Source: Candidatus Pacearchaeota archaeon (lineage in GTDB: Archaea > Nanobdellota > Nanobdellia > Pacearchaeales > JAPDKA01). Taken from it: a stretch of 64,000 bases of DNA. Both the position numbers and the translations under genes were made by a program. The stretch lies in assembly GCA_038817835.1 (NCBI GenBank), contig JAWAZI010000003.1, forward strand, positions 5,074-69,073, written 5' to 3'. Shown here piece after piece: positions 1,650 through 24,651 of the stretch; position 1 is the stretch's first letter, and every line of letters begins with the position of its first letter. The notes under the pieces are model-generated. The model was given only the letters and a program-made list of their open reading frames with translations, was not told the DNA's origin and made no database searches.

Positions 1650-1659
1650 AAAGTTATAG

Positions 1660-1667: not shown

Positions 1668-1690
1668 CTTAAATTGTTAATTGATATTGA

Positions 1691-1774: not shown

Positions 1775-1947
1775 TTTTGAATTTTTTGTAGCATAAAAAG
1801 AGAAAAAACTAAACCATAACGCAAAATAACAATGAAATACATTTAATTTTTTATTTTTTAATATTAATGCATAAACTTCTTTGCTTATATTTTATTTTCT
1901 TTTGCATTTTTTAAAAAAATTTTTAAATTAATTTTGAATTTTTTTAA

Positions 1948-2737: not shown

Positions 2738-2738
2738 A

Positions 2739-3146
2739 ATGGAAAAAAAATTTATTGTTAGTGCAAGAAGAAAAACTGCAATTGCAAGAGCTGTAATAAA
2801 GCAAGGAAGCGGAATAATTAAAATAAATAATAGACCAATAGAAGTTTTTGATATATATAGAAAACTACAACTTTATGAACCAATAAGAATTGCAGAATCT
2901 ATAATAGGGCCAATTAATAATATAGATATCTATGTTAATGTTAGAGGTGGAGGTGTTCAAGGTCAAACAGAAGCAGCAAGATTGGCTATTGCAAGAGCTT
3001 TAGTTAAATTTACAGGAAATTCAAAACTTAAAAAAGAATTTATTAATTATTCTCGTGATTTGGTAGATGCTGATGTTAGACAAAAAGAAATGAGAAAACC
3101 AAGAGATAGTAAAGCAAGAGCAAAAAGACAAAAAAGTTATAGATAA
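2739..3146 (+). CDS. rps9: 30S ribosomal protein S9
   Basis: ARRKTAIARAV...GGGVQGQTEAARLAIARAL...ARAKRQKSYR, canonical S9 C-terminus. Confidence 0.85.
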   Translation: MEKKFIVSARRKTAIARAVIKQGSGIIKINNRPIEVFDIYRKLQLYEPIRIAESIIGPINNIDIYVNVRGGGVQGQTEAARLAIARALVKFTGNSKLKKEFINYSRDLVDADVRQKEMRKPRDSKARAKRQKSYR

Positions 3147-3596
3147 TTATTTTTTTCTTAAAAAATCTTCTACAATTTTTATATAATTTTCAAAAATTTT
3201 TTCCCATTCTTCTAATTTTACTAAATCAATACTAATACTTTTTCCATCTTTAATCAAATTTACTATTATATTCTTTCTAAATTCATGTTCAGAAATTATT
3301 TCATATTCATGAATATTCTTAAAAATTTCATAAAGTTCAAACATTTTTTTTATAATATCATTTTTATTTTTTAATATTTTTTGTAATTGTATTATTTTTG
3401 CTTTTGGTGTTTCGGGAATTTGGTTTATAATTTTTTTCTTTTTTGCATGAATTAAACAAGCATCTATAGTTTCATCAATAGTTGCAGCCCATCTTTTCAT
3501 TAAATTAATTATTATATCTGAAGTTTTTGTGTATTTCAAACTTGTATAAAAAAGATGCTGTGCTCTCCTTTTTTCTTTTTCAATTTTTTTTAACAT
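3147..3596 (-). CDS. hypothetical protein (149 aa, helical)
   Basis: Long ORF with no recognizable motif; occupies the position where rpoN/rpoK normally follow S9 in archaea. Confidence 0.4.
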   Translation of the reverse strand: MLKKIEKEKRRAQHLFYTSLKYTKTSDIIINLMKRWAATIDETIDACLIHAKKKKIINQIPETPKAKIIQLQKILKNKNDIIKKMFELYEIFKNIHEYEIISEHEFRKNIIVNLIKDGKSISIDLVKLEEWEKIFENYIKIVEDFLRKK

Positions 3597-3623
3597 AAAA
3601 ATTTAATAAAATTTATTAAAAAT

Positions 3624-3776
3624 TTATGCAAATAAGTTTAAAATAATTTCTGCGATTATTATTAATGACAATATTATTAAAAATTTTATTGGAGAAATTT
3701 GTATTTTACTTTTATATTCATCAGTGTATCTTGTTATACCTCCATAACTTGGTGGCAAAATAAATTTTTCAGCCAT
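3624..3776 (-). CDS. preprotein translocase subunit Sec61-beta (archaeal SecG-like), 50 aa
   Basis: MAEKFILPPSYGGITRYTDEYKSKIQISPIKFLIILSLIIIAEIILNLFA has a GG-ITRY-DE motif plus a single C-terminal TM helix, like archaeal Sec61-beta. Too short for the supplied ORF track. Confidence 0.55.
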   Translation of the reverse strand: MAEKFILPPSYGGITRYTDEYKSKIQISPIKFLIILSLIIIAEIILNLFA

Positions 3777-3810
3777 ATAAAGAATATAAAATTCTTGTTT
3801 TAAAATTTTT

Positions 3811-4062
3811 GGTAGGGAAAGATAGGCCTCCTTCTGTGGCTCATTATAGAGCCTGTCAACATTCTACTTAGCGGCAAATTAGCCTTACACAGCCTTGGTT
3901 AGCCGTTTCAACTTGTTGTGGAAATGTCAAATTTTATCATCCTACTCCACAACAAGTTTCGTTTCTGTGCCATTGCCATACCTTTCGGTATGTGTCTTTC
4001 GACACAAGGCTTTTTTTGTGGGAGGACCTTCCTCCTTTTTGGATAGTTGACCTTTCCCTACA
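3811..4062 (-). ncRNA. rnpB: candidate RNase P RNA (structured GC-rich RNA, minus strand)
   Basis: About 250-nt GC-rich island in AT-rich DNA closed by a 10-bp terminal helix (GUAGGGAAAG/CUUUCCCUAC). On the minus strand GAGGAAGGUCCUCC (CR-I-like GAGGAAAGUCC with bulged U) can pair with ACAGAAGGAGGCCUAUC near the 3' end (CR-V-like ACAGAAnCCGGCUUAUC) to form P4. Two GAAA-tetraloop hairpins and a 12-bp perfect helix (ACUUGUUGUGGA/UCCACAACAAGU) are present. Confidence 0.5.
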
Positions 4063-4105
4063 ATAGTAAAAATATTAAAAAATTTAAAAATTTTATTATG
4101 CTTAT

Positions 4106-4177
4106 GCCCCAGTAGCTCAGTGGTAGAGCACTCGCTTCGTAAGCGAGAAGGCGTGGGTTCAAATCCCACCTGGGGCT
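4106..4177 (+). tRNA. tRNA-Thr (anticodon CGU)
   Basis: Cloverleaf with acceptor gccccag/ctggggc, anticodon stem ctcgc/gcgag, loop ttcgtaa, T-loop ttcaaat; followed by T-run. Confidence 0.85.
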
Positions 4178-4238
4178 TTTTATTTTTTATAAAAATAATT
4201 TAAAAAAATAAAAAATAATAAGGCAAGATAATATTATT

Positions 4239-4901
4239 TTAGCAACAATATTCATCACCCGCACATGGTGTTGTTTTTGCAGTGAATGTCCATACATCAC
4301 TTTTATATCCAGGAGGTGTATCATCACTTACTTTTAAATAACAATTTACATATACTTCATCACTTTCATCCTGTGGTCTCAATGATCCTGCTCCATAACA
4401 TATTCCTCTTTCCTGACTTGTTAAATTACCTACAGGTTTGGGCCAATCAAATGGTATACCACCTGTTGTACATGATCTTTCCTCTTTTTCTGTACTCCAA
4501 AATCCATAAAATTGTCTCCAACTAGTTCCACCTCCAAAAAAATCTTCTTTACTTTTATTACTTGTTACACATACATATAATTCTATATTACCATCATTCC
4601 TCACTAAAAATCCTGGAAGCTCTGGTGCAACACTTACAGTCCAGTTTTGTGCTATATAATTATTTGACCCATTTACACTTACTATACCATATGCATAAGG
4701 AGCAGTAACATAACCCTCTCCAAGATTACATGTAGCATCTGGTAAAGATATTGTTAATTGTTGAGTTATATTCACTGAAATATTTCCACCACTTTGCAAT
4801 CCTGTTATCTGATTCATCTTTGAAATATTCAAATAAACACCAACCACTGCTACTATTATAGCTATTATAAGCAAAATAACTAAAATTCTATCTCCATTCA
4901 T
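4239..4901 (-). CDS. Cys-rich secreted/membrane-anchored protein (220 aa), N-terminal signal anchor, many N-glycosylation sequons
   Basis: N-terminal hydrophobic helix ILVILLIIAIIVAVVGVYL; 9 Cys including C-terminal CAGDEYCC; multiple NxS/T. Local GC content visibly higher than neighbours. Confidence 0.6.
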   Translation of the reverse strand: MNGDRILVILLIIAIIVAVVGVYLNISKMNQITGLQSGGNISVNITQQLTISLPDATCNLGEGYVTAPYAYGIVSVNGSNNYIAQNWTVSVAPELPGFLVRNDGNIELYVCVTSNKSKEDFFGGGTSWRQFYGFWSTEKEERSCTTGGIPFDWPKPVGNLTSQERGICYGAGSLRPQDESDEVYVNCYLKVSDDTPPGYKSDVWTFTAKTTPCAGDEYCC

Positions 4902-4947
4902 TTTATTTTTTTAAATTTTATTTTTATAATGATAAATTTTATATTTT

Positions 4948-5397
4948 TTAAATCTTTCTAAATAGGATAATTGCTTTTCCTGTATAATTTCCAATTTTTG
5001 CATCCTTTGGAATAACAACAGAGAAAGTTATATTTTCTTTTGTATTTTTTTTAAGTATAAAATCATTTTTATCCACAATTATCCATTTAGCTATATCACC
5101 CTTTAAATAAATCTCTACTTTTACATCTTTATTGCTAGTTACTTCTATATATCTTTCTCCTCTACCTCCAGGCATTATTGTACCAAAATTTATACTTTCA
5201 TTTTCTATATTAAATCCTATATAATCACCAACTTTTAATTTAATATCATAAATTCTTATCGCAGTAGTATTATGTAAAAACTTAATATATATCCAAATCA
5301 ATTCTGTTAAAATAATAATTAACAAAAAAATAATAAACCAAATTAAAATTTTTTTCCAATTTATAATTTTATTTTCTTTTTTTACGCGATTTTTCAT
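4948..5397 (-). CDS. membrane-anchored beta-sandwich protein (149 aa)
   Basis: N-terminal TM helix ILIWFIIFLLIIILTELIWIYI followed by a beta-rich domain; overlaps upstream gene by 29 nt (operon). Confidence 0.5.
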   Translation of the reverse strand: MKNRVKKENKIINWKKILIWFIIFLLIIILTELIWIYIKFLHNTTAIRIYDIKLKVGDYIGFNIENESINFGTIMPGGRGERYIEVTSNKDVKVEIYLKGDIAKWIIVDKNDFILKKNTKENITFSVVIPKDAKIGNYTGKAIILFRKI

Positions 5398-6547
5398 GTT
5401 TTTCTTTTTTCATTTTAATTAATTTTATAATTAAATATATCAAAATTCCAATTATGATCAAAATTCCAATTATGATCAAAATAATTTTCAAATCAACAAA
5501 TTTTTTTATTTCTATTTCTCCATATTTAACTGTTTTTCTATTATCATAATTAAGTTCTATTAATATGAAATATTTTCCATAATAATCATTAGTATCTAAG
5601 TAAGCATTAATTTTCTTTTCTTCATATGCTTTTATATTTGTTACTTCACTTGTGAATTCTTTTAATGTGAAATTATTTTTATCTAATAATTTTATTTTTG
5701 CAAATATATTTTCTATATCTTTATTCCAGAGATTTTTTACTTTAATCTCAAATATATTTAGAGCTTTACTTCTTAATATTTTGGTATAATCAATTATTTC
5801 AATTGAAGGTTTACCAACTAACAATGAATTATTTAATTCTATTTTTTTATTATCATAATTTAATTCAACTATTATATCATATTTTCCACTTAATAATCCT
5901 TCTGTTGAAAGTTTTTCCTCAAATACTTTTTCTGTTTTTATAGGTATAAAGTAGTTTAATTTAATTTCTTTTATTTTTTTATCATCTTTTTTCAAATATA
6001 AATTACCATAAATATTTACGTCTTCACTACCAATGTTTAATATACTTATTTTTATACTTGTATTTTCTCCTATTTCTACACTTTTAACATCTATAATTCT
6101 AGCTTGTATCATTTTTCCTGGATATGGACTATAAATTTCAAAAGTTGCACAAGCAGCAGTTTTAGCCCCTATACCACTAGTATTTGTAGCAGTTTTTTCT
6201 TCTTCTACACAAATATTTACAGTATATTTTCCAGCATCTAATTTTAAGTCTGGTGGAAAGTTTATAGATAATATAGCCGGTTTTTGCTCACCAGGGTTTA
6301 AAAATAATATCTCTGGGGATATTTTGAAATATTTAGTAATTTTTTCTTCACCTTTAATTGTAAATATATGGTTCATAGGTATAGAAGTTGTAGATAAAAC
6401 ATCGAAAGTATAATTTTTTTTCATACCGGGCTCAAAAAAGAATTTTTCATATATGGCAGTTCCACTTAATCCAATACCATAACAATTATTTATAGAATAT
6501 AAATATAATAATGCTATTATGAAAAATATTAAAATTATTTTTTTCAT
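5369..6547 (-). CDS. surface protein with signal peptide, internal Ig-like repeats and C-terminal TM anchor plus basic tail (392 aa)
   Basis: Signal peptide MKKIILIFFIIALLYLYS; internal repeat GKY-I-ELNYDN-K twice; C-terminal IILIIIGILIIIGILIYLII followed by KKEKHEKSRKKRK. Confidence 0.6.
   Translation of the reverse strand: MKKIILIFFIIALLYLYSINNCYGIGLSGTAIYEKFFFEPGMKKNYTFDVLSTTSIPMNHIFTIKGEEKITKYFKISPEILFLNPGEQKPAILSINFPPDLKLDAGKYTVNICVEEEKTATNTSGIGAKTAACATFEIYSPYPGKMIQARIIDVKSVEIGENTSIKISILNIGSEDVNIYGNLYLKKDDKKIKEIKLNYFIPIKTEKVFEEKLSTEGLLSGKYDIIVELNYDNKKIELNNSLLVGKPSIEIIDYTKILRSKALNIFEIKVKNLWNKDIENIFAKIKLLDKNNFTLKEFTSEVTNIKAYEEKKINAYLDTNDYYGKYFILIELNYDNRKTVKYGEIEIKKFVDLKIILIIIGILIIIGILIYLIIKLIKMKKEKHEKSRKKRK
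5441..5476. repeat. perfect 18-bp tandem duplication (caaaattccaattatgat x2) inside the TM anchor coding region
   Basis: Direct adjacent repeat visible in sequence; encodes duplicated IIGILI hexapeptide in-frame. Confidence 0.8.
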
Positions 6548-6569
6548 TATAAATAAAAAAATAAAAAAT

Positions 6570-6800
6570 TTATTCTGGTCGTGGAAGGATGTTTACACGA
6601 ATTTTTCCCTCTTCTTTATTTTTTTGTTCCTCGACGCTAACAACTATCTTTCCATAAGCTACATTCCTTGTTTCAGCTTTTGGTTTTATCATAAATAGGT
6701 TTGTTGTATTTAATGTTATCCATGTACCAATCAAAATAGTGATTATTAGTATTATTATAAGTATTGCAAATATATTCTTTGAAGTATTTTGTTTTTCCAT
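6570..6800 (-). CDS. small single-pass membrane protein (76 aa)
   Basis: N-terminal TM helix IFAILIIILIITILIGTWITL; in operon between surface-protein genes. Confidence 0.4.
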   Translation of the reverse strand: MEKQNTSKNIFAILIIILIITILIGTWITLNTTNLFMIKPKAETRNVAYGKIVVSVEEQKNKEEGKIRVNILPRPE

Positions 6801-6836
6801 TTTAACTTTATTTTTAATTTAAAGTATTAAATATTT

Positions 6837-7325
6837 TTAAATTTTTTGTATTATTTCTAAATAAAAACCATAAATAATTAACTTAATAAAATTTTTTATT
6901 AAAGTTTTTTTGTCTATTAAAACTTTATAATTTTCTATATCTTTTTTTTCTATATTAATAGTTAATTTTACACCTCTTTTTACCATTATTCCTTCTTTAG
7001 GTTTTTCTTCTTCAATTATAAAAATATAGATTTTATCTTCCAAATTTTCTTTCATATATATACTAAAATTAATTTCTTTCTCTTTTTGATTTTTTTCTAT
7101 TTCAATATTTCTTATAATATTTATAGCATCACTTGATGGGTAAATTTTTAATTTAATTGATTCGTTTTCTATATTAATAATTTTAAAACTTAAATTTACT
7201 AATTTTCCTTGTTGATAATCTATATTAATTATTCCTGGAGAAACTCCAAAACTTTTTACTAAATTAATATTTAATAAAATTAAAATAAAAATTAAAAATA
7301 TTTTTTTCATTTTATTCAATAACAT
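6837..7325 (-). CDS. secreted beta-rich protein with signal peptide (162 aa)
   Basis: Signal peptide MKKIFLIFILILLNINLVKS then GVSPGIINIDYQQGKLVNLSFKIIN beta-strand pattern; start overlaps giant gene end by 14 nt. Confidence 0.5.
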   Translation of the reverse strand: MLLNKMKKIFLIFILILLNINLVKSFGVSPGIINIDYQQGKLVNLSFKIINIENESIKLKIYPSSDAINIIRNIEIEKNQKEKEINFSIYMKENLEDKIYIFIIEEEKPKEGIMVKRGVKLTINIEKKDIENYKVLIDKKTLIKNFIKLIIYGFYLEIIQKI

Positions 7326-10300
7326 CTACAAAACTTGCAAATAAATTTATTATTGAAGTTTTTAGTCCAGGTGGTTCATAAGGTGGAACTTTTATTTTTA
7401 TTTCCATTTCAGCTTCATTACTTTCATTACTATAATTTAATTGACCTATTAACCAGTTTAAATAATTTACATTTTCCCAATTAATGGTAGAATTACTTGA
7501 ATTAAAAGATCCTTGTTCATGAAAATCTGCTTTGAATTTATAATATTCTGATGGAATATCTTGTGTTTGCCAAAGAGGAGTAGAATTAAATTCTAAATTT
7601 ATAAAACAATTTCCTTTATTTTCTATTATTATAGGCATTGGATTATTATCTGTAGTATCATTTTCTTCATTTAAATTCATTAGACCAAAGTTTATTTGTT
7701 CATTTGATAGATTAATAAATACTAAAGCATCTATGTACAAGTTTCTATCAGAACTATAATTATAATCTTCTCCATCATATGATCCAACTCCCCAAATATA
7801 ATACTCATTAGTATCCCAAAAGTTTTTAAGATTAGTTGTTAAAGTATAATTTAAGTTTGTTATATTTTCTATTGTTCTATTATCAAATGGATTACAAAGA
7901 CATGGAGGATTAGTACAAGTTCCATTATATACACAATTTATTATTAATATATAACTAACTGGATCCCCGTCAGGATCTATACTTTCTCTCCACGAAAAAG
8001 TTGGTTTCCTATTATAAAGATGTTCATTATCATTTGGATAGCTTAGTTCTGGCATTGAAGGAGGTCTATTTAAAATTATAGTTAAATATTCACTATTTGT
8101 TATATTTTTTGTTATAACTTTTATTTTATATGGTTCACTAAAATTAACTATTATTGTATGATTATTCTTATCTTCTCTATATGAAGAATTTTGGAAAAAT
8201 TCTAATATTTTTTTTGTTTTTATTCTACCATTCATATCAGTTAATTCACTAAAAATAATTGTATTATTTTTATCATACATTGTCACATTGGCATTTCCTA
8301 TGGGAAAGTTATTTTTATTTTTTACTTGTATATCCAAATACCAATGAACATAGAAATTTGCATTATCATAAACAAAGATATTACTTCTATTAATTATAGT
8401 TGTATTTATGAAAGATATATTTGAATTATTATATAGATAAATGGAAGCTTTACAATATCCATCTATACAAACAATTTCATTATCTAAAAAAGAAAAATTC
8501 TCAAAAGGAGAATTTGTTGAACTTGAAATTCTTAATAAATTTAATTCTTGAGGTAAAAATATCTTATTTTTTATAAAGCTTATATTTTTAATATCCAAAA
8601 CATTACTACTAAAACCAATATTAAATCCATAGGCATCTGAAGAATTCAATGAGAGATTAATAATATTATTCTCAAAAGATACATTTTTTGCACCTTCCCA
8701 AAACTCTATAAAAAATCCTTTTGTATTAAAATAGTTATTATATATTTTTACATCTTCTTTTTTACAATTATCACTAAAAATATGTGTAGTCCAAAAAGTT
8801 GTGATATTATTATTTAATACTTCATAAATTCTTCCGATTGTAGTACAAGAGATTGCTATTCCTGTATGGACTTTACATGTGTTATTATATATTTTAAATG
8901 GATCAAAAGCATATGTTTGAAAACATATGGAACTATATGAATTTAGAACATCTTCTAAATAATTATTATAAAAGTTTACAATTCCAATTCTAACAATTGA
9001 ATTACTTCCACTACCAAAATTATAATAATAAAATCTATTATTAGATATATTTGAAAATTGATTTGAGTCTTTAGTATCAATTAAATTATAATCCCCCCTT
9101 ACATATATACTATGATAATACCACCATGGTTGTGAAGAAACCCAACTATGATAAAATATATTATCATAGATAGAAAAATTTGAATCTAAAATATAAATAG
9201 AATTGCTATTTCTACCATCATAGTTTTTTGTTTGGTTAAAAATATTATTATAAATTTGTAGTTTATTAATTTTTGTTATTCCATATATACCATAGTTAGT
9301 TAAATTTTCATTTCCATCAATAAAAATACAATTTTTTATAGTAATATTACTTAAGTAAGAATCTATAAATATACCTTTTCCACTTTCAATTATTCCATAA
9401 GTAATTGAATAATTGTTGCAATCTATTATGACATCATTTGAAAATATATTTATACAAGTTCCATTACTTGAAATGTTTCCAATTAATTTGTAATATCCTG
9501 GTATTGTTATATTATTACATCCAAAAATTTCTTCTTCACCTATAGAAACATTAAATGGAAGATATTTCATTAAATAGAAATAATCAACCATAATATATCC
9601 TTGTTGTGAACTTCCCATTTTTCCTTCTACTCCAAAAAGCTCAGTAAATTCAGTTCCAGGATCAAACTTAAGATCAACTGAATCAAATTGAGTTCCATTT
9701 AAATAATATAGTTCTATTCTTACATTAAAACCGGATTTTTTGACAATCAAATATAACCATGTATTTTTTGGCCAATTTGTTATTGATTTCCAATCAATCA
9801 TTTCTAAAGTAGTATCAACTTTATTTTTCCAAATACCCATTCTTGGATCATCCGTAGAACCATAATTTATGATACCAGCAAAATAAAAATAACCATAAGA
9901 ATCTTGACCTAATAAAATACCTACATCATGATGAAAATAATCATTAACTGTAGGATATGTATTAATATAAACTTTTGCGTACCATGTATCTAAAGAAGAA
10001 TATTTAATGGTGGTATATGCAGATACAGCTTTTGAAGAACTATCTATAACTCTAAATCCACAATTTCCTTCATATGGTCCATTAAAGTCATAACTTCCTT
10101 GTCCACTATTTCCTATATTTTCTATTCTATCCCATCTACTTCCATCACAACTTTCAAAATCATCATAAAATTCCGTAACTTCTTTTATATCACTTTCACT
10201 TAAAGCATTTTCATTTCCATAATAAACATAAAGTTGAGTTCCATTTAGATATGTAAAATTACCTTTAACCCAAACATATGCATAATTTTCATCAATTTTT

Positions 10301-11934
10301 TCTTCTATCCAATATTTTAAATGATTTCCATTTACATCAGCAAATCTTAAATCAGAAAAGTCTGTTTTCATATTATCATCATAACTTATATTTAAATTAA
10401 TTTGAAAATCTGTAACGTTTTGGGATATATTGACTTCTATTGCCCTTCTATAAGGCCATTCAGGATAAGCCCAAATACCTCCACTTATGCCACTAAAGTT
10501 TGTGATATTGAAAATTATATGAGTACCATTATCTATAAAATCTAATGTTTTTAAATTCCATTCACCATAACATTTGAATTCTTCTATACTCCAATTTTTA
10601 CAACCCATAATTGCATTTATATCTCCATATTTTTCTAATACTATATTAGCATATTCAACTTCTATATCAGGTTCTATTACAAAAATTTCTGTTTTAATTC
10701 CTTCTAATATTTGCTTCTCATTAGGTTTTCCAATTTGTATTTTTAAGGTAGGGGGTAATTTTTTTACCTTAATTTCAGATATTGGAGATAATATAGGATA
10801 ATCACTGAAACTTAAATCTTTTTCACTTATATTTATATTTTCTACAATTATATCATTTTTTAATATTTTTAGAATAACATTTTCAGAACTAATTGTAAAT
10901 TCTTTAACTAATTTACCTTTTTCATCATATATTTTAATAACAGTAATATTTGTTAAATTTTGTGTAATATTTATAGTTTCATTTATTTCTTGATATTCTT
11001 CATAGCTGATGACTTTTATTTTAGTAGTTACATCAGAGAAAACTATATCTTTATAATAAAATTTAACATGAAATTCATATACCCCTGTATTGTTCAATTT
11101 TATATTAAAATTTTCTAGAGGAAAATTAAAAATATGTATGTCACCCAAAAATTCTTCTCCAAAACCTTTTTTAATAAATTCTTTTACCTCTATCTTAATT
11201 TTCTTATTTTCTTTATCTTTATATAACTTAACTAAATCTTTACTAACTTCATTATTATTTTTATCAGTTACATTAATTATCTCTACTTCATAACCTTCAG
11301 CCTCGTAACTAATAACTTCTCCAACTTTTATTTCAGTTATTACTTCTATTTCTTCTTTATTTTCTATATCTATTTCATTAAATAAAACTTCATTTTCATT
11401 TTCCAATTTCTCTTCACTTATTTTTTCTTCGCCTTCTTCTTCCTTACCTTCACTTTCACTTTCGTTACTTTCAATATTTTCTCCTTCTTTGCTTTCTTCT
11501 CCACTTTCCTCTACTTCTATTTTTTTGAATTTTAGATGAACATAAAATTCATCAATTTTTTTCTTTCCAATAATTCCATAACCAAAACCAGATTCATTTA
11601 AATTATTTAATTTAGTATAAGCTTGGGCATAGTAAGTAGAGTAAAATTTATCTAAGTTTGCATTACTTAGTTTTATTATCTCTTCTAATGTTATATTTAT
11701 TTTATAACTATTCAAACTTAATTCAATAATAGATTCGCTTGGATAAAGTTCACCTTCTTTTATTGTAAATATTAAATTTCCACTTAAGGTTTGATTAACT
11801 AAGAAAACACTATTATCTAATTTTATTCCAATAGTTTCTGCTTCAATTTTCTTAATATTATAAAAAAATAAAAATATTAAAATGTAAAAAAGAATAAATA
11901 TACAAATTAATGTAACAATCTTTCTTATATCCAT
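7312..11934 (-). CDS. giant glycosylated cell-surface protein (1540 aa): N-terminal signal anchor, acidic linker, DUF2341-like + concanavalin/LamG-like region, right-handed parallel beta-helix repeats, DPDGD Ig-like module
   Basis: N-terminal TM; Glu/Ser-rich low complexity (aa 140-185). DUF2341-like block spans WAYPEWPYRRAIEVNIS...DLRFADVNGNHLKYWIEE...YVWVK...YVYYGN. Beta-helix entry motif GCNNITIPGYYKLIGNISSNGTCINIFSNDVIIDCNNYSI. PTFSWRESIDPDGDPVSY module. More than 60 NxS/T sequons. Paralogous to 51208-56568. Confidence 0.75.
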   Translation of the reverse strand: MDIRKIVTLICIFILFYILIFLFFYNIKKIEAETIGIKLDNSVFLVNQTLSGNLIFTIKEGELYPSESIIELSLNSYKINITLEEIIKLSNANLDKFYSTYYAQAYTKLNNLNESGFGYGIIGKKKIDEFYVHLKFKKIEVEESGEESKEGENIESNESESEGKEEEGEEKISEEKLENENEVLFNEIDIENKEEIEVITEIKVGEVISYEAEGYEVEIINVTDKNNNEVSKDLVKLYKDKENKKIKIEVKEFIKKGFGEEFLGDIHIFNFPLENFNIKLNNTGVYEFHVKFYYKDIVFSDVTTKIKVISYEEYQEINETINITQNLTNITVIKIYDEKGKLVKEFTISSENVILKILKNDIIVENINISEKDLSFSDYPILSPISEIKVKKLPPTLKIQIGKPNEKQILEGIKTEIFVIEPDIEVEYANIVLEKYGDINAIMGCKNWSIEEFKCYGEWNLKTLDFIDNGTHIIFNITNFSGISGGIWAYPEWPYRRAIEVNISQNVTDFQINLNISYDDNMKTDFSDLRFADVNGNHLKYWIEEKIDENYAYVWVKGNFTYLNGTQLYVYYGNENALSESDIKEVTEFYDDFESCDGSRWDRIENIGNSGQGSYDFNGPYEGNCGFRVIDSSSKAVSAYTTIKYSSLDTWYAKVYINTYPTVNDYFHHDVGILLGQDSYGYFYFAGIINYGSTDDPRMGIWKNKVDTTLEMIDWKSITNWPKNTWLYLIVKKSGFNVRIELYYLNGTQFDSVDLKFDPGTEFTELFGVEGKMGSSQQGYIMVDYFYLMKYLPFNVSIGEEEIFGCNNITIPGYYKLIGNISSNGTCINIFSNDVIIDCNNYSITYGIIESGKGIFIDSYLSNITIKNCIFIDGNENLTNYGIYGITKINKLQIYNNIFNQTKNYDGRNSNSIYILDSNFSIYDNIFYHSWVSSQPWWYYHSIYVRGDYNLIDTKDSNQFSNISNNRFYYYNFGSGSNSIVRIGIVNFYNNYLEDVLNSYSSICFQTYAFDPFKIYNNTCKVHTGIAISCTTIGRIYEVLNNNITTFWTTHIFSDNCKKEDVKIYNNYFNTKGFFIEFWEGAKNVSFENNIINLSLNSSDAYGFNIGFSSNVLDIKNISFIKNKIFLPQELNLLRISSSTNSPFENFSFLDNEIVCIDGYCKASIYLYNNSNISFINTTIINRSNIFVYDNANFYVHWYLDIQVKNKNNFPIGNANVTMYDKNNTIIFSELTDMNGRIKTKKILEFFQNSSYREDKNNHTIIVNFSEPYKIKVITKNITNSEYLTIILNRPPSMPELSYPNDNEHLYNRKPTFSWRESIDPDGDPVSYILIINCVYNGTCTNPPCLCNPFDNRTIENITNLNYTLTTNLKNFWDTNEYYIWGVGSYDGEDYNYSSDRNLYIDALVFINLSNEQINFGLMNLNEENDTTDNNPMPIIIENKGNCFINLEFNSTPLWQTQDIPSEYYKFKADFHEQGSFNSSNSTINWENVNYLNWLIGQLNYSNESNEAEMEIKIKVPPYEPPGLKTSIINLFASFVDVIE

Positions 11935-11984: not shown

Positions 11985-13748
11985 ATGGAGAAAATAAAAA
12001 AATATAGTATAGTAGTTGATACAAGTATAATTATAGAAGGAATACTTTCTGATTTAATAAAGAATTCAAAACTTGAAGTTAATAAAATAATAATTCCAGA
12101 AGCAGTTATTTCAGAATTAGAAAATCAAGCAAATAAAGGTAAAGAAATAGGATTTGTTGGAATAGAAGAAATTGAGAATATTAAAAAATTAAGTGGGGAA
12201 AAAAATATAGAAGTAATTTTTTATGGTGAGAAACCAACAGAAGAAATAATAAAAAGTGCAAAAGTAGGGGCTATAGATGCTATAATAAGAAAAATTGCCG
12301 AAATAAATAATGCATGTTTATTTACAGCAGATAGAGTCCAAGCAGCAATTGCAAAAATTAAAGGTGTTGATATATTATTTTTTGAAGTTAAAGCAAGAAA
12401 ATTATCAATAGAGAAATTTTTTGGAGATGATGTAATGAGTTTACATTTAAGAGAAAATGTTGAGATAATGGCAAAAAAAGGAAAACCAGGAAATTGGCAA
12501 TTAGTTATAGTAGGAAGAAAAGTTACAAGAGAAGAATTAAAAAAAATAGAGAAGGAAATAATTGAAGTAGCAAGGCAGAGAGAAGACGGCTTTATAGAAA
12601 TTGATAGAAAATATTCTACAATTGTTCAAATAGGAACATATAGAATAGTTATAACTAGACCACCTTTTAGTAAATATTACGAAATAACAATCGCAAGTCC
12701 AATAAAACAATTAGATATAAATGATTATAAATTAGATGAAAATTTACTAAATAGATTTGAGAGGGCAGAAGGTATTCTTGTAGCTGGACCACCTGGAAAT
12801 GGGAAATCAACTTTTGTTCAAGCATTAGCAAAATTTTATTTAAATAAAAATAAAATTGTTAAAACTATCGAAGCTCCAAGAGATTTAGTTTTACCAAAAG
12901 AGATAACACAATATGCTTTAGCCCATTCAACTCATGACGAAATTAGAGATATTTTACTTTTATCTAGGCCAGATTATACAATGTTTGATGAAATGCGTAA
13001 TGATGCAGATTTTAGACTTTATACTGATTTAAGATTAGCTGGTATAGGTTTAGTTGGTGTTGTTCATGCTACTGAAGCTATAGATGCAATTCAAAGATTT
13101 TTTAATAGAGTTGAGCTTGGAACTTTACCAAGTATAATTGATACAGTTATATTTATCAAAGATGGAGAGATAAAGAAAGTTTTATCATTAGAGATGAAGG
13201 TAAAAGTTCCTTATGGTATGAGAAGTGAAGATTTAGCTAGGCCAATTATATTAGTTAGAGATTATAAAACTAAAATAGTAGAATATGAAATATATAATTT
13301 TGCTGATCAGATTGTAGTTAATAAAGTTAAAACAATTAATGAAGAAGAGATAATAAATGAAATAGAAAAAATAGTTAAGCTGAGACCTGAAATAGAAATT
13401 AATGATAATAATTGTATAGTATATTTACCAAGCTCAAGAATTTCTTTATTAATAGGTAAAAAAGGAAGAACTATTAATAATTTAGAGAAAAAATTTGGAA
13501 TTTTTATTGAGGTTAGAGAAAAAATAGAAAAAAAGGAAAAAGCAAATTATAAATTAAATATATCCAAGAAAAATTTGAAGTTTATTTTTGATAGAGATAG
13601 TGGATATGTTATATTTTATAAAAATGGAGAAGAAATTGGAATTTTTTATTTTAAAGATGGAATATTAAAAATAAAGAGAAAATCAATGTTAGGAAAAAAA
13701 ATTTTTGAATGTATAAGGAATAAAAATTTAGAGATTTACTATGGATAA
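11985..13748 (+). CDS. PIN-domain ATPase with C-terminal KH domain (COG1855-like, PilT-family annotation)
   Basis: N-terminal PIN (IVVDTSIIIEG); Walker A GILVAGPPGNGKSTFVQALA; C-terminal KH motif LLIGKKGRTINNLEKKFGIFIEV. Confidence 0.7.
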   Translation: MEKIKKYSIVVDTSIIIEGILSDLIKNSKLEVNKIIIPEAVISELENQANKGKEIGFVGIEEIENIKKLSGEKNIEVIFYGEKPTEEIIKSAKVGAIDAIIRKIAEINNACLFTADRVQAAIAKIKGVDILFFEVKARKLSIEKFFGDDVMSLHLRENVEIMAKKGKPGNWQLVIVGRKVTREELKKIEKEIIEVARQREDGFIEIDRKYSTIVQIGTYRIVITRPPFSKYYEITIASPIKQLDINDYKLDENLLNRFERAEGILVAGPPGNGKSTFVQALAKFYLNKNKIVKTIEAPRDLVLPKEITQYALAHSTHDEIRDILLLSRPDYTMFDEMRNDADFRLYTDLRLAGIGLVGVVHATEAIDAIQRFFNRVELGTLPSIIDTVIFIKDGEIKKVLSLEMKVKVPYGMRSEDLARPIILVRDYKTKIVEYEIYNFADQIVVNKVKTINEEEIINEIEKIVKLRPEIEINDNNCIVYLPSSRISLLIGKKGRTINNLEKKFGIFIEVREKIEKKEKANYKLNISKKNLKFIFDRDSGYVIFYKNGEEIGIFYFKDGILKIKRKSMLGKKIFECIRNKNLEIYYG

Positions 13749-14058
13749 GAAAGGATTAGAAGCTATTTATGAAACTTTAGCACAAATATTAATTATAATT
13801 TTATTTTTTTCAGCTTGTATTTTTTTTATTATTTCATCAAAAAATATAGAGATTGAGAAAGTAGCTTTATTAGAAATTGTTTATGCATGTACTATTTTTG
13901 ACGATGCTATTATAGAGATAAATAGTAGTTATTTTAATGTTTCACAAATAAAATATGATAATGAAAACTTTTTTTTTGAAGGAAAAAACTATAAGGAAAA
14001 ATATTATGGAAAAAATAAAATAAAAATAGAAAATGGTATTATTGAAATAAAAAAATGA
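13741..14058 (+). CDS. prepilin-like protein with class III signal peptide (105 aa)
   Basis: MDKKG|LEAIYETLAQILIIILFFSACIFFII has a K-K-G cleavage-site-like motif followed by a hydrophobic helix; 8-nt overlap with upstream gene. Confidence 0.5.
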   Translation: MDKKGLEAIYETLAQILIIILFFSACIFFIISSKNIEIEKVALLEIVYACTIFDDAIIEINSSYFNVSQIKYDNENFFFEGKNYKEKYYGKNKIKIENGIIEIKK

Positions 14059-14420
14059 AATTTAAGGCACAGATAGATATAGTTTGGCTTTATAGATTTT
14101 TTTTAATAATACTTGTTACTCTAGGTTTATTACTTTTAGTAGGAAGATATAAAAGTATAGAGCTAAACAGAAAACCATTGAAAGCTGCAAGCATATTAAA
14201 TTTAATTTATTATTGTAAAGAAGAAAATTTAAGTAATTGTATAAATATTGATTCCAGTTTTTTTATAAGTTATAAACAAGAAAATTATGGAAATATTGCA
14301 TTAAAGACTTTATGTGAATCAAAAGAAAAAAATGTAGAATTAAAAGAGGATATTTTTTGTTTGAAAACACAAATTTATAAAGATAAAAAATTTGAAGAAA
14401 TTTTTATTGGAATAAAATGA
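14055..14420 (+). CDS. prepilin-like protein with class III signal peptide (121 aa)
   Basis: MKFKA|QIDIVWLYRFFLIILVTLGLLLLV; ATGA overlap with previous gene. Confidence 0.5.
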   Translation: MKFKAQIDIVWLYRFFLIILVTLGLLLLVGRYKSIELNRKPLKAASILNLIYYCKEENLSNCINIDSSFFISYKQENYGNIALKTLCESKEKNVELKEDIFCLKTQIYKDKKFEEIFIGIK

Positions 14421-14959
14421 AAAATAAAAAAGCACAAGAATCTTTATTAACTTTAATTGTAACTACTTTAATAATTTTGATTATTTTATTTTTATTTTTA
14501 GCCATATCTTTTGTCACACATCCTTTTTCCAAAAAGACAGAAATAATAACTAATGATATCTCAGAAACAAAAAATGCTTATTTAATTTTAAATTCCCTTA
14601 TTTTTTCTCAACTTAATGAAAATGAAAAGAAAGATTTCAATGTTGATTATTTTTATGAATTAATTTATTTATATTTAATAGAAAATCAAGAAAAAAAACA
14701 AAAAATAGAAGGAATAATAAGAAATAAATTAGATTTTTTGAAAGATTATATTTTTGTAATTTATTTTTATGACGGAGAAAAATATGAAGAATTATTAAAT
14801 TTAGAGAAATTAAGTATTTCTAGAAAAATAGAAAGAGGACTTCTTTTAATTCCTTCAGCTGTAATAGAATATGGATTAGAGAAAAAATATATAGCAAAAA
14901 TTATTCTTCCATATAATGAAGAAAAATTAATATTAATACTATTAATAATTATAAAATGA
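14417..14959 (+). CDS. prepilin-like protein with class III signal peptide (180 aa)
   Basis: MKNKKA|QESLLTLIVTTLIILIILFLFL, a close match to the archaeal type IV pilin signal (KA-Q-x-S-L); ATGA overlap. Confidence 0.55.
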   Translation: MKNKKAQESLLTLIVTTLIILIILFLFLAISFVTHPFSKKTEIITNDISETKNAYLILNSLIFSQLNENEKKDFNVDYFYELIYLYLIENQEKKQKIEGIIRNKLDFLKDYIFVIYFYDGEKYEELLNLEKLSISRKIERGLLLIPSAVIEYGLEKKYIAKIILPYNEEKLILILLIIIK

Positions 14960-15675
14960 TAAAGAAAAAAGCAATAGGTTTTTTTTCTTATTTATTAGTT
15001 TTTGCAACATTAATTTTATATTCATTTGCTTTAATAAAAATAGGAACTATTGAAAAATCTAAAATAGTGAAAAGTTTTGAAAAAATTGAAGATTTAGATA
15101 ACTTTAATTATTATATCGATAACTTTGATAATTACTTAAACTTATCATATCAAATTTCATATTATAATTCAATTTACAATTTTTCAAATTATTTTGATAA
15201 AAGTGAAAAATGTAAAATAATATATTTGAATGATATTCCATATTTTTCTATGGATTGTAATTTTGATAAAAATATTTTTTTAGATTTTTTGAATAAATCA
15301 TTTAATGAATATATAAAAAATTATTTAGATTATGGAAAAAAAATATATAATTTCAGTTATGAGTTTTCATGTAAAATTGATAATATAGTAAAATGCAATA
15401 TATTTATTTATAAAAATTTCAATATGGATATAATGAATATTAGCTTAAAAAAAGAGAAAAAATTTGAGCAACAAATAGATTTTAAATTTTTGGAGGAATT
15501 TCAAGAAATTAAAGAAAAATTAAAAAATGGTCAAATAGATCATGATGAATTTGAAATTGAGAAAAATGAAGATAAAAATTATATTTATACAAAAATAAAG
15601 TTAAAGAAAAAATTTTTAGTTGTTGGAGATATATTATCTAAACAAATTGAATTAAAATTTTATCATGAGAAGTAA
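14956..15675 (+). CDS. prepilin-like protein with class III signal peptide (239 aa)
   Basis: MIKKKA|IGFFSYLLVFATLILYSF; ATGA overlap with previous gene. Confidence 0.45.
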   Translation: MIKKKAIGFFSYLLVFATLILYSFALIKIGTIEKSKIVKSFEKIEDLDNFNYYIDNFDNYLNLSYQISYYNSIYNFSNYFDKSEKCKIIYLNDIPYFSMDCNFDKNIFLDFLNKSFNEYIKNYLDYGKKIYNFSYEFSCKIDNIVKCNIFIYKNFNMDIMNISLKKEKKFEQQIDFKFLEEFQEIKEKLKNGQIDHDEFEIEKNEDKNYIYTKIKLKKKFLVVGDILSKQIELKFYHEK

Positions 15676-15677: not shown

Positions 15678-16598
15678 ATGATAGTAGATATTGATGAATT
15701 AATAGAAAAAATATCAAAATTTTCAAATTTTAGCAAAGAAGAAATAAGAAAGAGGATAGAGGCAAAAAGAGAAAAACTTGGTAAGTTAATAAGCTTAGAA
15801 GGTGCAGCACAAATAGTTGCTGCAGAGCTTGGAGTAAAATTTGAAAATATTACATTAAATATTTCTGATTTACTTCCAGGAATGAAAAGAATAAATGTTA
15901 TTGGAAAAATTATAGACAATTATGGAGTTAGATTTTATAAAAGAGGAGATAAACAATTAAAAGTTGCAACTTTTTTGTTAGCAGATTCGACAGATGCTAT
16001 AAGAGTTGTTTTATGGGATACTAATCATATAGATTTAATTGAAAAAAATGAAATAAAATTAGGCGATATAGTAGAGATAAATAATGCTTATGTTAGAGGG
16101 GATATCGATAATAAAGAACTTCACTTAACAAATAATTCAATTATAAAATTATCTGAAAATAAAATTGAAAATATTGTTGATGAATATAAATATAAATATA
16201 AGCTTATTGATAAACTTACAACAAATGTTAGAGCTAAAATAAGAGCATTTGTTGTTCAAATATTTACTCCTAAAATTTTTGATATGTGTCCAATATGTAA
16301 TTCAAGATCATGTATTGAACATGAAGAAAGAGAAAAAAGAATTTTATTTCCTTTTATTGTTGATGATGGTTCTGGCAATATAAGATGTGTAGCATTTAAA
16401 GAAACAACATTAAAAATGTTAAATGTTAATAATATTGATGAAATAAATGAGGAAAAATTGAAAAATTTGATTGGTGAAGAGTTTTGGTTTGATGGAAGAG
16501 TAAGAAAAAATAAAAAAAGAGACGAAATAGAGTTTGTAGTTAATGATGTTGAAAAAGTTGATATTAAACAGCTTATTGAAAAACTTCAAAATTTATGA
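15678..16598 (+). CDS. rpa: replication protein A-like ssDNA-binding protein (OB fold + zinc finger)
   Basis: N-terminal [33 protein letters not shown] typical of euryarchaeal RPA N-domain; [14 protein letters not shown] zinc ribbon. Confidence 0.6.
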
Positions 16599-17546
16599 TT
16601 CTTCCTTATCACTTATTCCATAACTTGTAATGAAAAATATTGTTTCATTATCTGGTAGATTTGGACTATCAATTAATTTTGCAACTCTACTATTTTTTTT
16701 ACCTTTTCTCAAATAAATTCTATAAGTTGATGCATGTCCAACTATATGTCCACCTATAGCTTGTGTTGGATCTCCGAATAAAACATCTGGTCTTGCCATA
16801 ACTTGATTTGTTACATATACAGCTAAATTATATTGTTCTGCTAATCTGATTAGCATATGCATATATCTATTAAGTTTTTGTTGTCTATCTGCAAGAGTTC
16901 CACGGCCTATATATTCTGCCCTAAAATGACTTGTTAAACTATCAACAACAATTAATTTTATTTTTTCTTTAGTTAGTAATTCTTTAATTTTTTCTACAAG
17001 CAATATTTGATGATCACTATTAAATACTCTTGCAACAAATATATTATTTAAAACTTGATCAGGATTTAATCCTTTTGCTAATGCAATTTGTCTTATTCTT
17101 TCAGGTCTAAAGGTTCCTTCTGTATCGATAAATATTACTTTTCCATCAGCTCCATTTTCTTCTAATGGTAATTGTGCATTTACTGATAATTGTAAACCCA
17201 ATTGAGTTTTTCCACTTCCATATGCACCAAAAGCTTCTGTAACAGCTTTTGTTTCTATGCCACCTCCAAGCAAATTATCCAAATTTTTACTTCCAGTTGT
17301 TATTTTTATTATTTCTTTTCTTTTGTTTTCATAATTTAGTGCTGTATCAAAATCAAGTTTTAATAACTTTCTTGCAGAAGTTATAATTTTTCTCGCAACA
17401 TTTTCACTTACTCCAATTGCTTCAGCCAATTCGACAGGAGGAGTTACAACTATTGCCATTAAATCTGTAAATCCAGCATCTTCAAGTTTTTTTGCTAGAG
17501 TACTTCCAACTCCAGGCAAATCTCTTAATTTATATTCTTTTTCCAT
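16593..17546 (-). CDS. radA: DNA repair and recombination protein RadA
   Basis: N-terminal HhH ([17 protein letters not shown]); Walker [11 protein letters not shown]; Walker B LIVVDSL; 317 aa. Confidence 0.9.
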
Positions 17547-17796: not shown

Positions 17797-17964
17797 GAAA
17801 GCAATAAAAAACATAACCAAAATTTTGACAGGAATTACATTGGGATTCCTTTTATTAAGCAATAACCATTTTGTTAATGAAACTAAAAAAATAAAATTAA
17901 GTGAATTAATAAATTATGATAAAAAATTAGAAGATATCGTTGAAAACCATTTTTTTAACTAAGC
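17797..17964 (+). CDS. small hypothetical membrane protein (55 aa)
   Basis: ORF MKAIKNITKILTGITLGFLLLSNNHF... in otherwise empty intergenic region; weak. Confidence 0.25.
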
Positions 17965-18383
17965 TTATTAGCAACAATATCAGCAATGAATGCGATAAGC
18001 ATGCTTATACTTAATAAATCAACAACCAAACAATATTTGCATATTGCCTTTATTACAAAAAACTGTAAAAATAAAAGATAAAGAGAAAATATCGATATAA
18101 TAATCAATAATAAAAATATAACTTTATTTTTTAAATTGCTCGGATTTTTTATTTGTGTAGCACTTAATAAGGCTAAAATTAAAAATGCAAATATTCCTAT
18201 AATACTTAAATGAATTCCAGCTATATCAGAAAAAGAACTTACATCAACAATAGCACAACCCCCACTAATAAAGCAAGAATCTTTTGGCTTAATTTTGTTA
18301 ATCTCTATATAGCTAGAAATAAATAAATTTATTATTGAGATAATAAATATATATGTAAGCATGATTTTTTTTCTTTTTTCCAT
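17955..18383 (-). CDS. vitamin K epoxide reductase (VKOR) family membrane protein
   Basis: Loop cysteines CFISGGCAIV and TM CxxC (ICKYCLVV), 4 TM helices; VKOR-type disulfide oxidoreductase pattern. Confidence 0.6.
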   Translation of the reverse strand: MEKRKKIMLTYIFIISIINLFISSYIEINKIKPKDSCFISGGCAIVDVSSFSDIAGIHLSIIGIFAFLILALLSATQIKNPSNLKNKVIFLLLIIISIFSLYLLFLQFFVIKAICKYCLVVDLLSISMLIAFIADIVANKLS

Positions 18384-23614: not shown

Positions 23615-24031
23615 ATGGAATGCATATTTTGTAAAATTATTAATAAACAAATTCCTTCAGATATAATTTATGAGGATAAAGATGTTATATGTTTTCTTGA
23701 TATAAATCCAATTGCAAGAGGTCATGCTTTATTATTACCAAAAAAACATTTTAATCATTTGCTAGAAGTTGATAAAAAAACTTTAGGAATTCTTCTAAAA
23801 AAAATTAAATTTGTTGCAGAAAATTTAATAAAAGCAACAGAAAGTGAAGGTTTTAATTTATTATTAAATAATAGAAAAGCTGCAGGACAAGTTATAGATC
23901 ATATACATTTTCATATTATTCCAAGGAAAGAAAATGATGGAGTAAAGCTAGACTGGAGTAGTAAATATATTTATAAAGATAATGAAAAAAAACAAATAAT
24001 TAAAAAATTTAAAGAATTAATAAAAATTTAG
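23615..24031 (+). CDS. HIT-family hydrolase
   Basis: CIFCKII...ARGHALLLPKKH...HIHFHIIPR histidine triad. Confidence 0.85.
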   Translation: MECIFCKIINKQIPSDIIYEDKDVICFLDINPIARGHALLLPKKHFNHLLEVDKKTLGILLKKIKFVAENLIKATESEGFNLLLNNRKAAGQVIDHIHFHIIPRKENDGVKLDWSSKYIYKDNEKKQIIKKFKELIKI

Positions 24032-24651
24032 GATTTTTTAAAATATAAAGCAATTATAGTCAAAATTATTGCTATTAAAAAGCATGGAAAAATAAAAAAT
24101 AATTTATAAGAAAATAATGTTTTTATTATTGGAGTTATATTATTCCTATTTGGGATAAAGATAAATAATAATAAACCAATAAGGCTCAATAAATTTATAA
24201 TGATTAAAATATTAGCAACTTTTTTATTAATTTTTTTGAAAATTATATAAATATTTGTTAATAGACAAGGAATTCCAAATAAAATCCATGCTAATGTTAT
24301 AAAATTTTTATATTTTATTATTAAAATAATGAGATAATATAAAATAAAAATTAAAGAAAAAAAATTTATTATACTAAAAAAATTAATCCTTTTTCTTTCA
24401 TATTTTTCTTTTTTTTCTTTTTCAGTCAATTTTTTTTCAATTATTTCTTTTTTTTCTCTTTTATATTTTGGAACTTCTATTTCTTTAATTTTAATTTCTT
24501 TATAGCTAGTTTGTTTTAAAATTTCATTAGCAATCTCAAAAACTTTTTCTTTATCATAACCAGCATTAATTAAACTTATAACAGCTTGTTCAATACTCTC
24601 TCCCCTTTCAATAGCATGCAGTATTGCTAACTTTATTTGTTCTTTTTCCAT
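24028..24651 (-). CDS. hypothetical membrane protein with N-terminal soluble helical domain (207 aa)
   Basis: N-terminal about 90 aa soluble, then 4 TM helices; no motif recognised. Confidence 0.4.
   Translation of the reverse strand: MEKEQIKLAILHAIERGESIEQAVISLINAGYDKEKVFEIANEILKQTSYKEIKIKEIEVPKYKREKKEIIEKKLTEKEKKEKYERKRINFFSIINFFSLIFILYYLIILIIKYKNFITLAWILFGIPCLLTNIYIIFKKINKKVANILIIINLLSLIGLLLFIFIPNRNNITPIIKTLFSYKLFFIFPCFLIAIILTIIALYFKKS

Follow-up and report, generated by a model that had tools for sequence, protein, structure and literature searches.

Four consecutive open reading frames (ORFs), here called ORF1 to ORF4, that lie on the forward strand of a stretch of contig JAWAZI010000003.1 from Candidatus Pacearchaeota archaeon (assembly GCA_038817835.1), directly behind a gene for a PIN–ATPase–KH protein, probably encode four distinct, lineage-specific minor-pilin-like proteins, which would undergo processing by a prepilin peptidase and be built into a filament by a machine of the FlaI/FlaJ type whose genes lie elsewhere. 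The stretch of 64,000 nucleotides (nt) that was analyzed is referred to as the window throughout. That ORF1–ORF4 are real genes is plain, because the same four families recur in the same fixed order across eight independent lineages; the cleavage of the encoded proteins, their incorporation into a filament and their role as minor pilins are what we infer from the observations laid out below.

An earlier note on this DNA had described the four ORFs as translationally coupled and prepilin-like, and the coordinates, lengths and N-termini it gave for them (Table 1) all match the sequence exactly. As for the junctions, which it had taken to be ATGA overlaps throughout, the description is correct for ORF1/ORF2, ORF2/ORF3 and ORF3/ORF4 (4-nt overlaps), but not for the junction of the upstream gene with ORF1, which is an 8-nt overlap, ATGGATAA, at positions 13741–13748. 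The cassette families occur as single copies, always together, in a fixed order and often translationally coupled, and hhalign comparisons between the four families revealed no paralogy among them, which led to the rejection of a tandem-duplication origin of the cassette. A fixed set of non-paralogous, single-copy and frequently coupled genes suggests, by analogy with bacterial minor-pilin tip complexes, that their products might form a stoichiometric complex. The window as a whole has a G+C content of about 24% and encodes an archaeal RNase P RNA, and no RNA gene or tRNA overlaps the cassette region. The PIN-ATPase shows 100% identity with a protein from a Candidatus Pacearchaeota MAG, a member of the DPANN group.

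Distribution and Divergence of the Cassette

The cassette stands behind the PIN–ATPase–KH gene in six lineages (the window, L005, L003/L004, L090, L091 and L092), in which the PIN-ATPase is 69–81% identical to that of the window, and it is also present in two more distant ones, L094 (38% G+C) and L097/L098 (32% G+C), where the family-specific hidden Markov models (HMMs) recover ORF1–ORF4 with E-values of 7e-17, 9e-19, 5e-10 and 2e-32, respectively (6.6e-17 for the ORF1 family model against L094). By sequence comparison, the cassette proteins are fast-evolving, as is typical of surface proteins, because ORF1–ORF4 of the window share only 22–42% identity with their counterparts in the distant lineages, as opposed to 54–57% for the replication factor A homologue (RPA) and 74–76% for the recombinase RadA, both encoded just downstream, in the same comparisons. 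The families are also, as far as the searches can tell, narrowly lineage-specific, since an exhaustive phmmer search with ORF4 returned only 10 relatives among 1.84 billion cluster representatives; a protein homologue search with ORF4 gave just two near-identical proteins.

A Class III Signal-like N-Terminal Boundary

Cleavage by archaeal SPase III is governed by three positions of the class III signal peptide, namely −2 (charged, usually Lys or Arg), −1 (Gly or Ala, also Ser) and +1, which all come ahead of a hydrophobic domain (PMC4371748, PMC3387779), and ORF1–ORF4 all begin in this fashion, with a short basic leader that passes over a [KR]-[GA] boundary into a hydrophobic helix. When examined in alignments by eye and with a home-made regular expression, rather than with FlaFind, the [KR]-[GA] boundary turned out to be conserved in 31 of the 32 cassette proteins that represent the eight lineages, behind leaders of anything from 3 to about 40 amino acids (aa). 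The ORF4 alignment has KK[GA] in 12/12 sequences (with leaders 4 to about 40 aa long), ORF3 has [KR][GA] in 8/8 lineages with Gln at +1 in six of the eight, and ORF2 shows K[GA]/Q in seven of eight (a slash marks the boundary here and in Table 1). The +1 Gln found in most ORF2 and ORF3 orthologues (KA/Q, RA/Q) matches the KGQ and RAQ sites that are the signature of the EppA-processed Epd pilins of M. maripaludis (PMC4371748). A pilin is expected to have a hydrophobic H-domain of about 20 residues at +1 or immediately behind it; in ORF3 and ORF4, the hydrophobic run begins by +4, in ORF1 and ORF2 only at +7 to +8. The [KR]-[GA] motif is, to judge from the remaining proteins of the window, neither generic to this genome nor a compositional artefact, because the other N-terminally anchored or secreted proteins encoded there (e.g., those of 392 and 162 aa) carry ordinary Sec-type signals.

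Predicted Structures and Conserved Cysteines

The AlphaFold2 model of ORF4, built from 11 sequences, is a confident one, having a predicted local distance difference test score (pLDDT) of 83.9 and a predicted template modelling score of 0.72, and it consists of a continuous helix over residues 3–55 (53 residues) followed by a domain of mixed helices and sheet; the length of the predicted helix matches that of the alpha-1 helix of type IV pilins. The model of ORF1, made from a single sequence and with a pLDDT of 65, has helices at residues 3–32 and 38–52, then six strands. The pilin architecture, i.e., an N-terminal helix of about 50 residues plus a beta-sheet, is thus predicted for ORF4 and, at the pLDDT stated, for ORF1. 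Four cysteines of ORF2 (C54, C62, C87 and C102) are invariant in its family, and so are C86 and C101 of ORF4, whereas C139 and C147 of the latter are kept in at least 90% of the sequences. The VKOR homologue and the thioredoxin–DsbD fusion encoded in the window (Table 1) imply extracytoplasmic disulfide-bond formation, and the cysteine pairs of ORF2 and ORF4, when taken together with these two genes, would fit an extracytoplasmic, disulfide-bonded domain.

What these features lead one to envisage is that each cassette protein would be inserted into the membrane by Sec and the signal recognition particle, after which a prepilin peptidase of the PibD/FlaK or EppA type, whose gene would lie at another site in the genome, would cut off the basic leader after [KR]-[GA]. 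The mature protein would keep its N-terminal hydrophobic helix, with a small globular domain folding outside the cell, which, in the case of ORF2 and ORF4, would be stabilized by disulfides; a VKOR and a DsbD-like protein are encoded nearby. The four proteins would then most probably act as a stoichiometric minor-pilin set, a priming or tip complex, in a filament made by a distant FlaI/FlaJ-type machine.

Pilin-like Proteins or Ordinary Membrane Anchors

The most obvious competing explanation is that ORF1–ORF4 are ordinary surface proteins held by a single-pass (type II, N-in) anchor, uncleaved and belonging to no filament, the Lys–Gly/Ala pair being merely the positive-inside flank of that anchor. 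Several observations weigh against the minor-pilin reading, and some of them can be read in favor of such anchors. Firstly, the search for known pilin families came back empty: 31 cassette-family sequences gave no Class_IIIsignal, Pilin_N or arch_flag_Nterm match at E <= 1, nor was there one in NCBIfam at E <= 10, and Pfam and NCBIfam assigned neither these sequences nor the four window proteins to any meaningful family (the curated pilin/archaellin N-terminal models tried were PF04021, PF07790 and TIGR02537), while profile searches of the four families against PDB sequences gave noise only and Foldseek against PDB retrieved no pilin or any other fold. Many archaeal pilins are known to escape such short models. 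Secondly, ORF1 and ORF2 are less canonical than ORF3 and ORF4, in that their hydrophobic run begins only at +7 to +8 and is preceded by charged residues (E2/E6 in ORF1; D3/R9 in ORF2, where an Arg or Lys at about +9 is conserved), so that charges fall within the first 6–10 positions of the supposed mature proteins, and one ORF2 orthologue, that of L091, has no basic residue at −2. Thirdly, a loose class III regular expression matches as many as 78 of the 225 ORFs with an N-terminal transmembrane (TM) segment in the fetched DPANN loci. Fourthly, neither a peptidase nor a secretion ATPase or platform protein was seen in the 64 kb that constitute the data on this organism. Finally, the minor-pilin or tip-complex role is drawn purely from analogy, and overlapping junctions are commonplace in this very compact genome: 13 of the 46 same-strand junctions in the window overlap, nine of the 46 do so by 4 nt (ATGA-type), and genes as unrelated as those for TFE-alpha and a rhomboid protein, or a Bud32-like kinase (assigned by eye) and a GGDEF protein, overlap as well.

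Nevertheless, Gly or Ala stays fixed at the boundary in all but one of the 32 proteins while the length of the leader and most other residues vary, and a positive-inside flank alone would not give such a pattern; the conserved +1 Gln fits pilins; and the confident model of ORF4 has, like a pilin, an N-terminal helix of 53 residues. We, therefore, regard ordinary anchors as a rather unlikely explanation. The prepilin-like character proposed in the earlier note is, within the reach of sequence analysis, supported, with the conserved boundary, the +1 Gln, the predicted ORF4 helix and the cysteine pairs speaking for it and the absence of any pilin HMM or fold match, together with the less canonical ORF1 and ORF2, speaking against it. 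Should the proteins indeed be pilin-like, four previously unrecognized families would join the archaeal type IV filament repertoire, and, as DPANN archaea need cell–cell contact with their hosts, filaments on the cell surface probably play a central part in how they live.

The Upstream PIN–ATPase–KH Gene

The assignment of PIN, T2SSE-type ATPase and KH domains to the gene upstream of the cassette, likewise made in the earlier note, is borne out by Pfam, where the PIN, T2SSE and KH_1 models all score above their gathering thresholds. The encoded protein aligns over residues 9–511 with the crystal structure of S. islandicus SisPINA (5F4H; E = 4.4e-119), its N-terminal PIN domain matches MJ1533 (3I8O; E = 1e-32), and the acidic residues of the PIN domain as well as Walker A and B are invariant in the PIN-ATPase alignment. 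NCBIfam PRK13764 scores 683 bits, well over its 340-bit cutoff, and the equivalog NF053733 (HJMigATPsPINA), a model centred on crenarchaeal PINA, reaches 485 bits, which is under its cutoff of 800. The gene is a PINA homologue and a probable orthologue, and its biochemistry is presumably equivalent. It has the PIN–ATPase–KH domain order of the PINA/MJ1533 family, from which it differs in being the DPANN form, extended at the C-terminus by about 75 aa, and, unusually, in overlapping a pilin-like gene. PINA, a hexameric helicase, is the motor of Holliday-junction branch migration and interacts with Hjc and Hjm; every archaeon sequenced is reported to have a homologue (PMC6061704), although S. 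acidocaldarius can do without the protein (PMC8775617).

The position of this gene invites the thought that its PilT-like ATPase domain powers the assembly or retraction of the pilins in place of a FlaI/PilB-type ATPase. The domain does belong to the secretion-ATPase/PilT superfamily (the ATPase core has a weak Pfam T2SSE match of 33.6 bits over residues 240–373, E = 2e-8, and matches PilT and PilF structures with E-values of about 1e-5 to 1e-6), it is the sole such ATPase in the window, and the 8-nt overlap with ORF1 is kept in six lineages. The protein is, however, orthologous to PINA over its full length, its PIN, Walker and KH features are conserved, and PINA works as a DNA helicase that is soluble and hexameric (PMC6061704), from a family described as distinct from secretion ATPases (PMC4858521). 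What one would expect of a FlaI/PilB/TadA-type assembly ATPase, namely a stand-alone protein with an N-terminal domain of the FlaI/GspE type and the gene of a polytopic platform protein beside it, is not seen, the core being fused to PIN and KH domains with no platform gene adjacent, and neither a platform protein nor a membrane-interaction domain is there to connect PINA with a filament.

The genomic context points the same way. Among 80 PINA loci from GTDB species representatives (mostly Woesearchaeota/Nanoarchaeota, at about 50% identity), 66 have PINA as one ORF, and pilin-like genes lie directly downstream of it in none of these 66 other DPANN loci. The notion that PINA is generally followed by pilin-like genes was accordingly rejected: the usual downstream neighbor in the Woesearchaeota/Nanoarchaeota loci is the gene for seryl-tRNA synthetase (annotated as such in L006 and L008). 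The cassette, in turn, exists without PINA: in L094, the genes ahead of it are LemA-like and HtpX-like (identified by eye) and lie on the opposite strand, and in L097/L098 they are a 414-aa gene and the histidyl-tRNA synthetase (HisRS) gene, also on the opposite strand. The pairing of PINA with pilin-like genes, the conservation of which the earlier note had left to be checked, hence extends to the six lineages with a PINA at least 69% identical to that of the window but not to L094, L097/L098 or the 66 other DPANN loci. A local rearrangement seems to have put PINA ahead of the cassette in one Pacearchaeota subclade, because the genes flanking the cassette in L097 (those for HisRS and Sec61-beta) sit upstream of PINA in L091/L092 and L005.

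The earlier suggestion of a functional link between the PIN-ATPase and the pilins finds no support in these comparisons, the adjacency being confined to a narrow subclade. Given the local rearrangement and the high background of overlaps, any such link is extremely unlikely, and the use of PINA as the motor of the filament is just as implausible. PINA is probably a neighbor of the cassette through genome compaction, and its overlap with ORF1 would be the result of a rearrangement in one subclade with compact genomes, not of a shared function. The locus may, in this regard, serve as a cautionary case: in ultra-compact genomes, overlap with a conserved gene such as PINA need not mean shared function.

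Many of the PINA loci L010–L089 have a gene for a secreted protein of about 650–715 aa (with a Sec signal) upstream of PINA and one of about 424 aa downstream, a neighborhood unrelated to pilins. In Woesearchaeota, a conserved protein of about 680 aa is encoded upstream of PINA; it was considered as a class III substrate and rejected, as it has an ordinary Sec signal peptide.

The Downstream RPA–RadA Linkage

The cassette has one invariant neighbor, and it lies downstream: RPA comes after ORF4 in each of the 11 lineages seen, and RadA is the next gene wherever the contig extends that far. RPA of the window has Pfam OB folds and DUF2240, and NCBIfam replication factor A models hit it with E = 1e-30, albeit under their cutoffs. 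Between ORF4 and RPA, the spacing ranges from −4 to +26 nt in six lineages (two of which, L005 and L094, have an ATGA overlap there) and from 90 to 400 nt in four more; in L091, a small gene on the opposite strand is inserted between the two.

In Sulfolobus, Ups pili have a role in DNA exchange for repair. It could be imagined that the cassette is coupled to RPA and RadA (and, in one subclade, to PINA) as the surface component of a competence-type pilus for DNA uptake that feeds RadA-dependent recombination in a host-dependent DPANN archaeon. The adjacency to RPA in 11/11 lineages, in which the upstream flank has at least three states and the flank beyond RadA two, and the gap of no more than 26 nt in six lineages are in line with such a coupling. 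So are two precedents: natural transformation of M. maripaludis needs type IV-like (Epd) pili, the pilins of which have +1 Gln (PMC10133366, citing Fonseca 2020), and the Ups pili of Sulfolobus mediate UV-induced cell aggregation (PMC4371748). On the other side of the scale, RPA, RadA, VKOR and glycyl-tRNA synthetase form a larger housekeeping synteny block, so that the adjacency of the cassette may simply be inherited in a single clade of family rank; overlaps between unrelated genes are frequent in the genome of the window; RPA and RadA are of the canonical kind and perhaps the sole copies; and the cassette is associated with neither a DNA-binding feature nor a nuclease or transporter. The gap, moreover, widens to 116–400 nt in L003, L090 and L092, and the pair is interrupted in L091. 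A role in DNA uptake appears quite improbable on this balance. If it were true, a DNA-capture pilus module co-expressed with RPA and RadA would be the first genomic coupling of pilins and recombination in Archaea, as well as the first secretion-type context for a PINA gene; at any rate, the linkage is a testable lead on archaeal DNA uptake.

A longer gene with a GGDEF domain adjoins RadA in three distant relatives (L095 3146–4213, L097 13223–14248 and L099 3527–3820). The window itself encodes a GGDEF diguanylate-cyclase domain at 35746–36345 (−; E = 1e-46). Cyclic di-GMP signalling is, to our knowledge, rarely reported in Archaea; in bacteria, it often controls pili.

Assembly Machinery and Possible Filament Partners

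The absence of assembly machinery from the window, as reported in the earlier note, was confirmed by a scan in which the larger and the membrane ORFs were searched with Pfam or NCBIfam and the smaller ones were inspected by eye: apart from the PINA gene discussed above, there is no T2SSE/FlaI, T2SSF/FlaJ or Peptidase_A24 match, and the PIN-ATPase and RadA are the sole Walker-A (P-loop) proteins that the 64 kb encode. Neither a secretion ATPase (arCOG01817-19/05609) nor a TadC/FlaJ platform protein is encoded in the 20-kb flanks of the L094 and L097 cassettes. Two membrane proteins were considered as hidden prepilin peptidases, a 9-TM ORF (48154–48984) and a 4-TM ORF (24028–24651), and both were rejected, having no family match and no GxGD. 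Pilin genes located apart from their machinery are the usual case in archaea, as exemplified by pilA1-6 of H. volcanii and EpdE of M. maripaludis (PMC4371748; bioRxiv 10.64898/2026.04.22.720090).

Two further class III-like genes of the window, joined by an ATGA overlap, encode proteins of 204 and 137 aa (Table 1) and sit between the gene for alanyl-tRNA synthetase and an unassigned 405-aa gene; the shorter protein has weak NCBIfam matches to UpsA (E = 3.4e-5), BasC and arch_flag_Nterm. The two are candidate major pilins for the same filament. The gene divergent from PINA encodes a 1540-aa surface protein with DUF2341 (Pfam E = 1.5e-18), and proteins with this domain are proposed PilY-like tip adhesins in clade-1 loci of archaeal type IV pili (PMC4858521), which is why this one may be a pilus-associated adhesin. 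Its location next to PINA is not kept in L005, L091, L092 and L097.

Comparison with Known Systems

The closest archaeal counterparts are the Epd, or system 1 (clade 1), pili of Methanococcales, Thermococcales and some DPANN (for reports in the latter, see PMC4858521; bioRxiv 10.64898/2026.04.22.720090; PMC4371748), whose loci, like the cassette, hold several small class III proteins side by side, with K/R–G/A cleavage motifs and, in some of them, a +1 Gln; the adhesin-like giant protein with DUF2341 that is encoded nearby in the window is a further likeness. Unlike these systems, the cassette has no adjacent ATPase, double platform protein or EppA, shows no similarity to DUF361/Class_IIIsignal or to known pilin arCOG surrogates (Pfam/NCBIfam), and is placed amid housekeeping genes of DNA metabolism. 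It also differs from the standalone pilA1-6 of H. volcanii and EpdE/MMP1685 of M. maripaludis, which are major pilins with highly conserved H-domains, in consisting of four unrelated families that form a fixed set.

In its organization, the cassette resembles the bacterial GspH-I-J-K, FimU-PilV-W-X and ComGD-GG sets, in which about four non-identical pilin-like proteins of graded size are encoded by consecutive, often overlapping genes. The presumed product of such minor (pseudo)pilin sets is an initiation or tip complex with 1:1:1:1 stoichiometry, and the likeness of the cassette to them is one of analogy only: the cassette is archaeal, lacks the N-methylation motif and the Glu5 consensus, and has neither detectable homology nor a Foldseek match to pseudopilin structures.

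Other Features of the Window and of Related Loci

The coordinates of the cassette and of the genes to which it was compared are collected in Table 1.

Table 1. Genes of the cassette and other features of the window discussed in the text (a slash marks the putative class III boundary).
Feature	Position	Strand	Remarks
PINA orthologue	11985-13748	+	PIN, PilT-like ATPase, KH and C-terminal extension; context, outside the pilin module
ORF1	13741-14058	+	105 aa, MDKKG/LEAIYE; pilin-like, least canonical of the four
ORF2	14055-14420	+	121 aa, MKFKA/QIDIV; pilin-like, four invariant Cys
ORF3	14417-14959	+	180 aa, MKNKKA/QESLL; pilin-like
ORF4	14956-15675	+	239 aa, MIKKKA/IGFF; pilin-like, two conserved Cys pairs
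RPA (replication factor A) homologue	15678-16598	+	Invariant downstream neighbor; Pfam OB folds, DUF2240
RadA recombinase	16593-17546	-	Convergent with RPA; NCBIfam PRK04301, 480 bits (cutoff 259 bits)
VKOR homologue	17955-18383	-	Syntenic with the cassette–RPA–RadA block in five lineages
Thioredoxin–DsbD fusion	24741-25877	-	In the window
Class III-like gene	39002-39616	+	204 aa, MKKNKA/QFF; ATGA overlap with the next gene
Class III-like gene	39613-40026	+	137 aa, MKA/ISELL; weak NCBIfam matches
DUF2341 surface protein	7312-11934	-	1540 aa; divergent from PINA

The DUF2341 gene is the last of a run of genes on the reverse strand (4239–11934), the others of which encode secreted or anchored proteins of 220, 149, 392, 76 and 162 aa. 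A 1786-aa paralogue of the DUF2341 protein, with beta-helix/NosD repeats, is encoded at 51208–56568 (+) and starts with MKKG/VKF; this class III-like start may be incidental, since the 1540-aa protein is devoid of it.

A bacterial-type signal peptidase II (Peptidase_A8, E = 3e-23) is encoded at 59249–59686 (+), and L094 has a gene for an Lgt-like membrane protein (by eye) at 3056–3820 (+). Bacterial lipoprotein-processing enzymes are, as far as we know, unusual in archaea, and it is possible that these genes were acquired by horizontal transfer. At 48154–50642 (+), the 276-aa 9-TM protein, which has no Pfam or NCBIfam match, is encoded in ATGA overlap with a PKD-domain protein of 553 aa, which carries a signal at its N-terminus and a TM segment at its C-terminus; the two could be a sortase-like processing pair.

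About 5–8 kb upstream of the L097 cassette (644–4490, +) there is a group of genes encoding a 436-aa protein with a weak match to DUF87, which is a HerA/VirB4-like ATPase domain, then an SLT lytic transglycosylase with LysM, and then a 472-aa protein, which may represent a module for DNA transfer or for the attack of host cell walls. Lastly, two proteins of the window, of 498 aa (56599–58095, +) and 337 aa (58218–59231, +), belong to no Pfam or NCBIfam family and have no P-loop motif, and the former, rich in Tyr, Asp and Pro, has an extracellular look.

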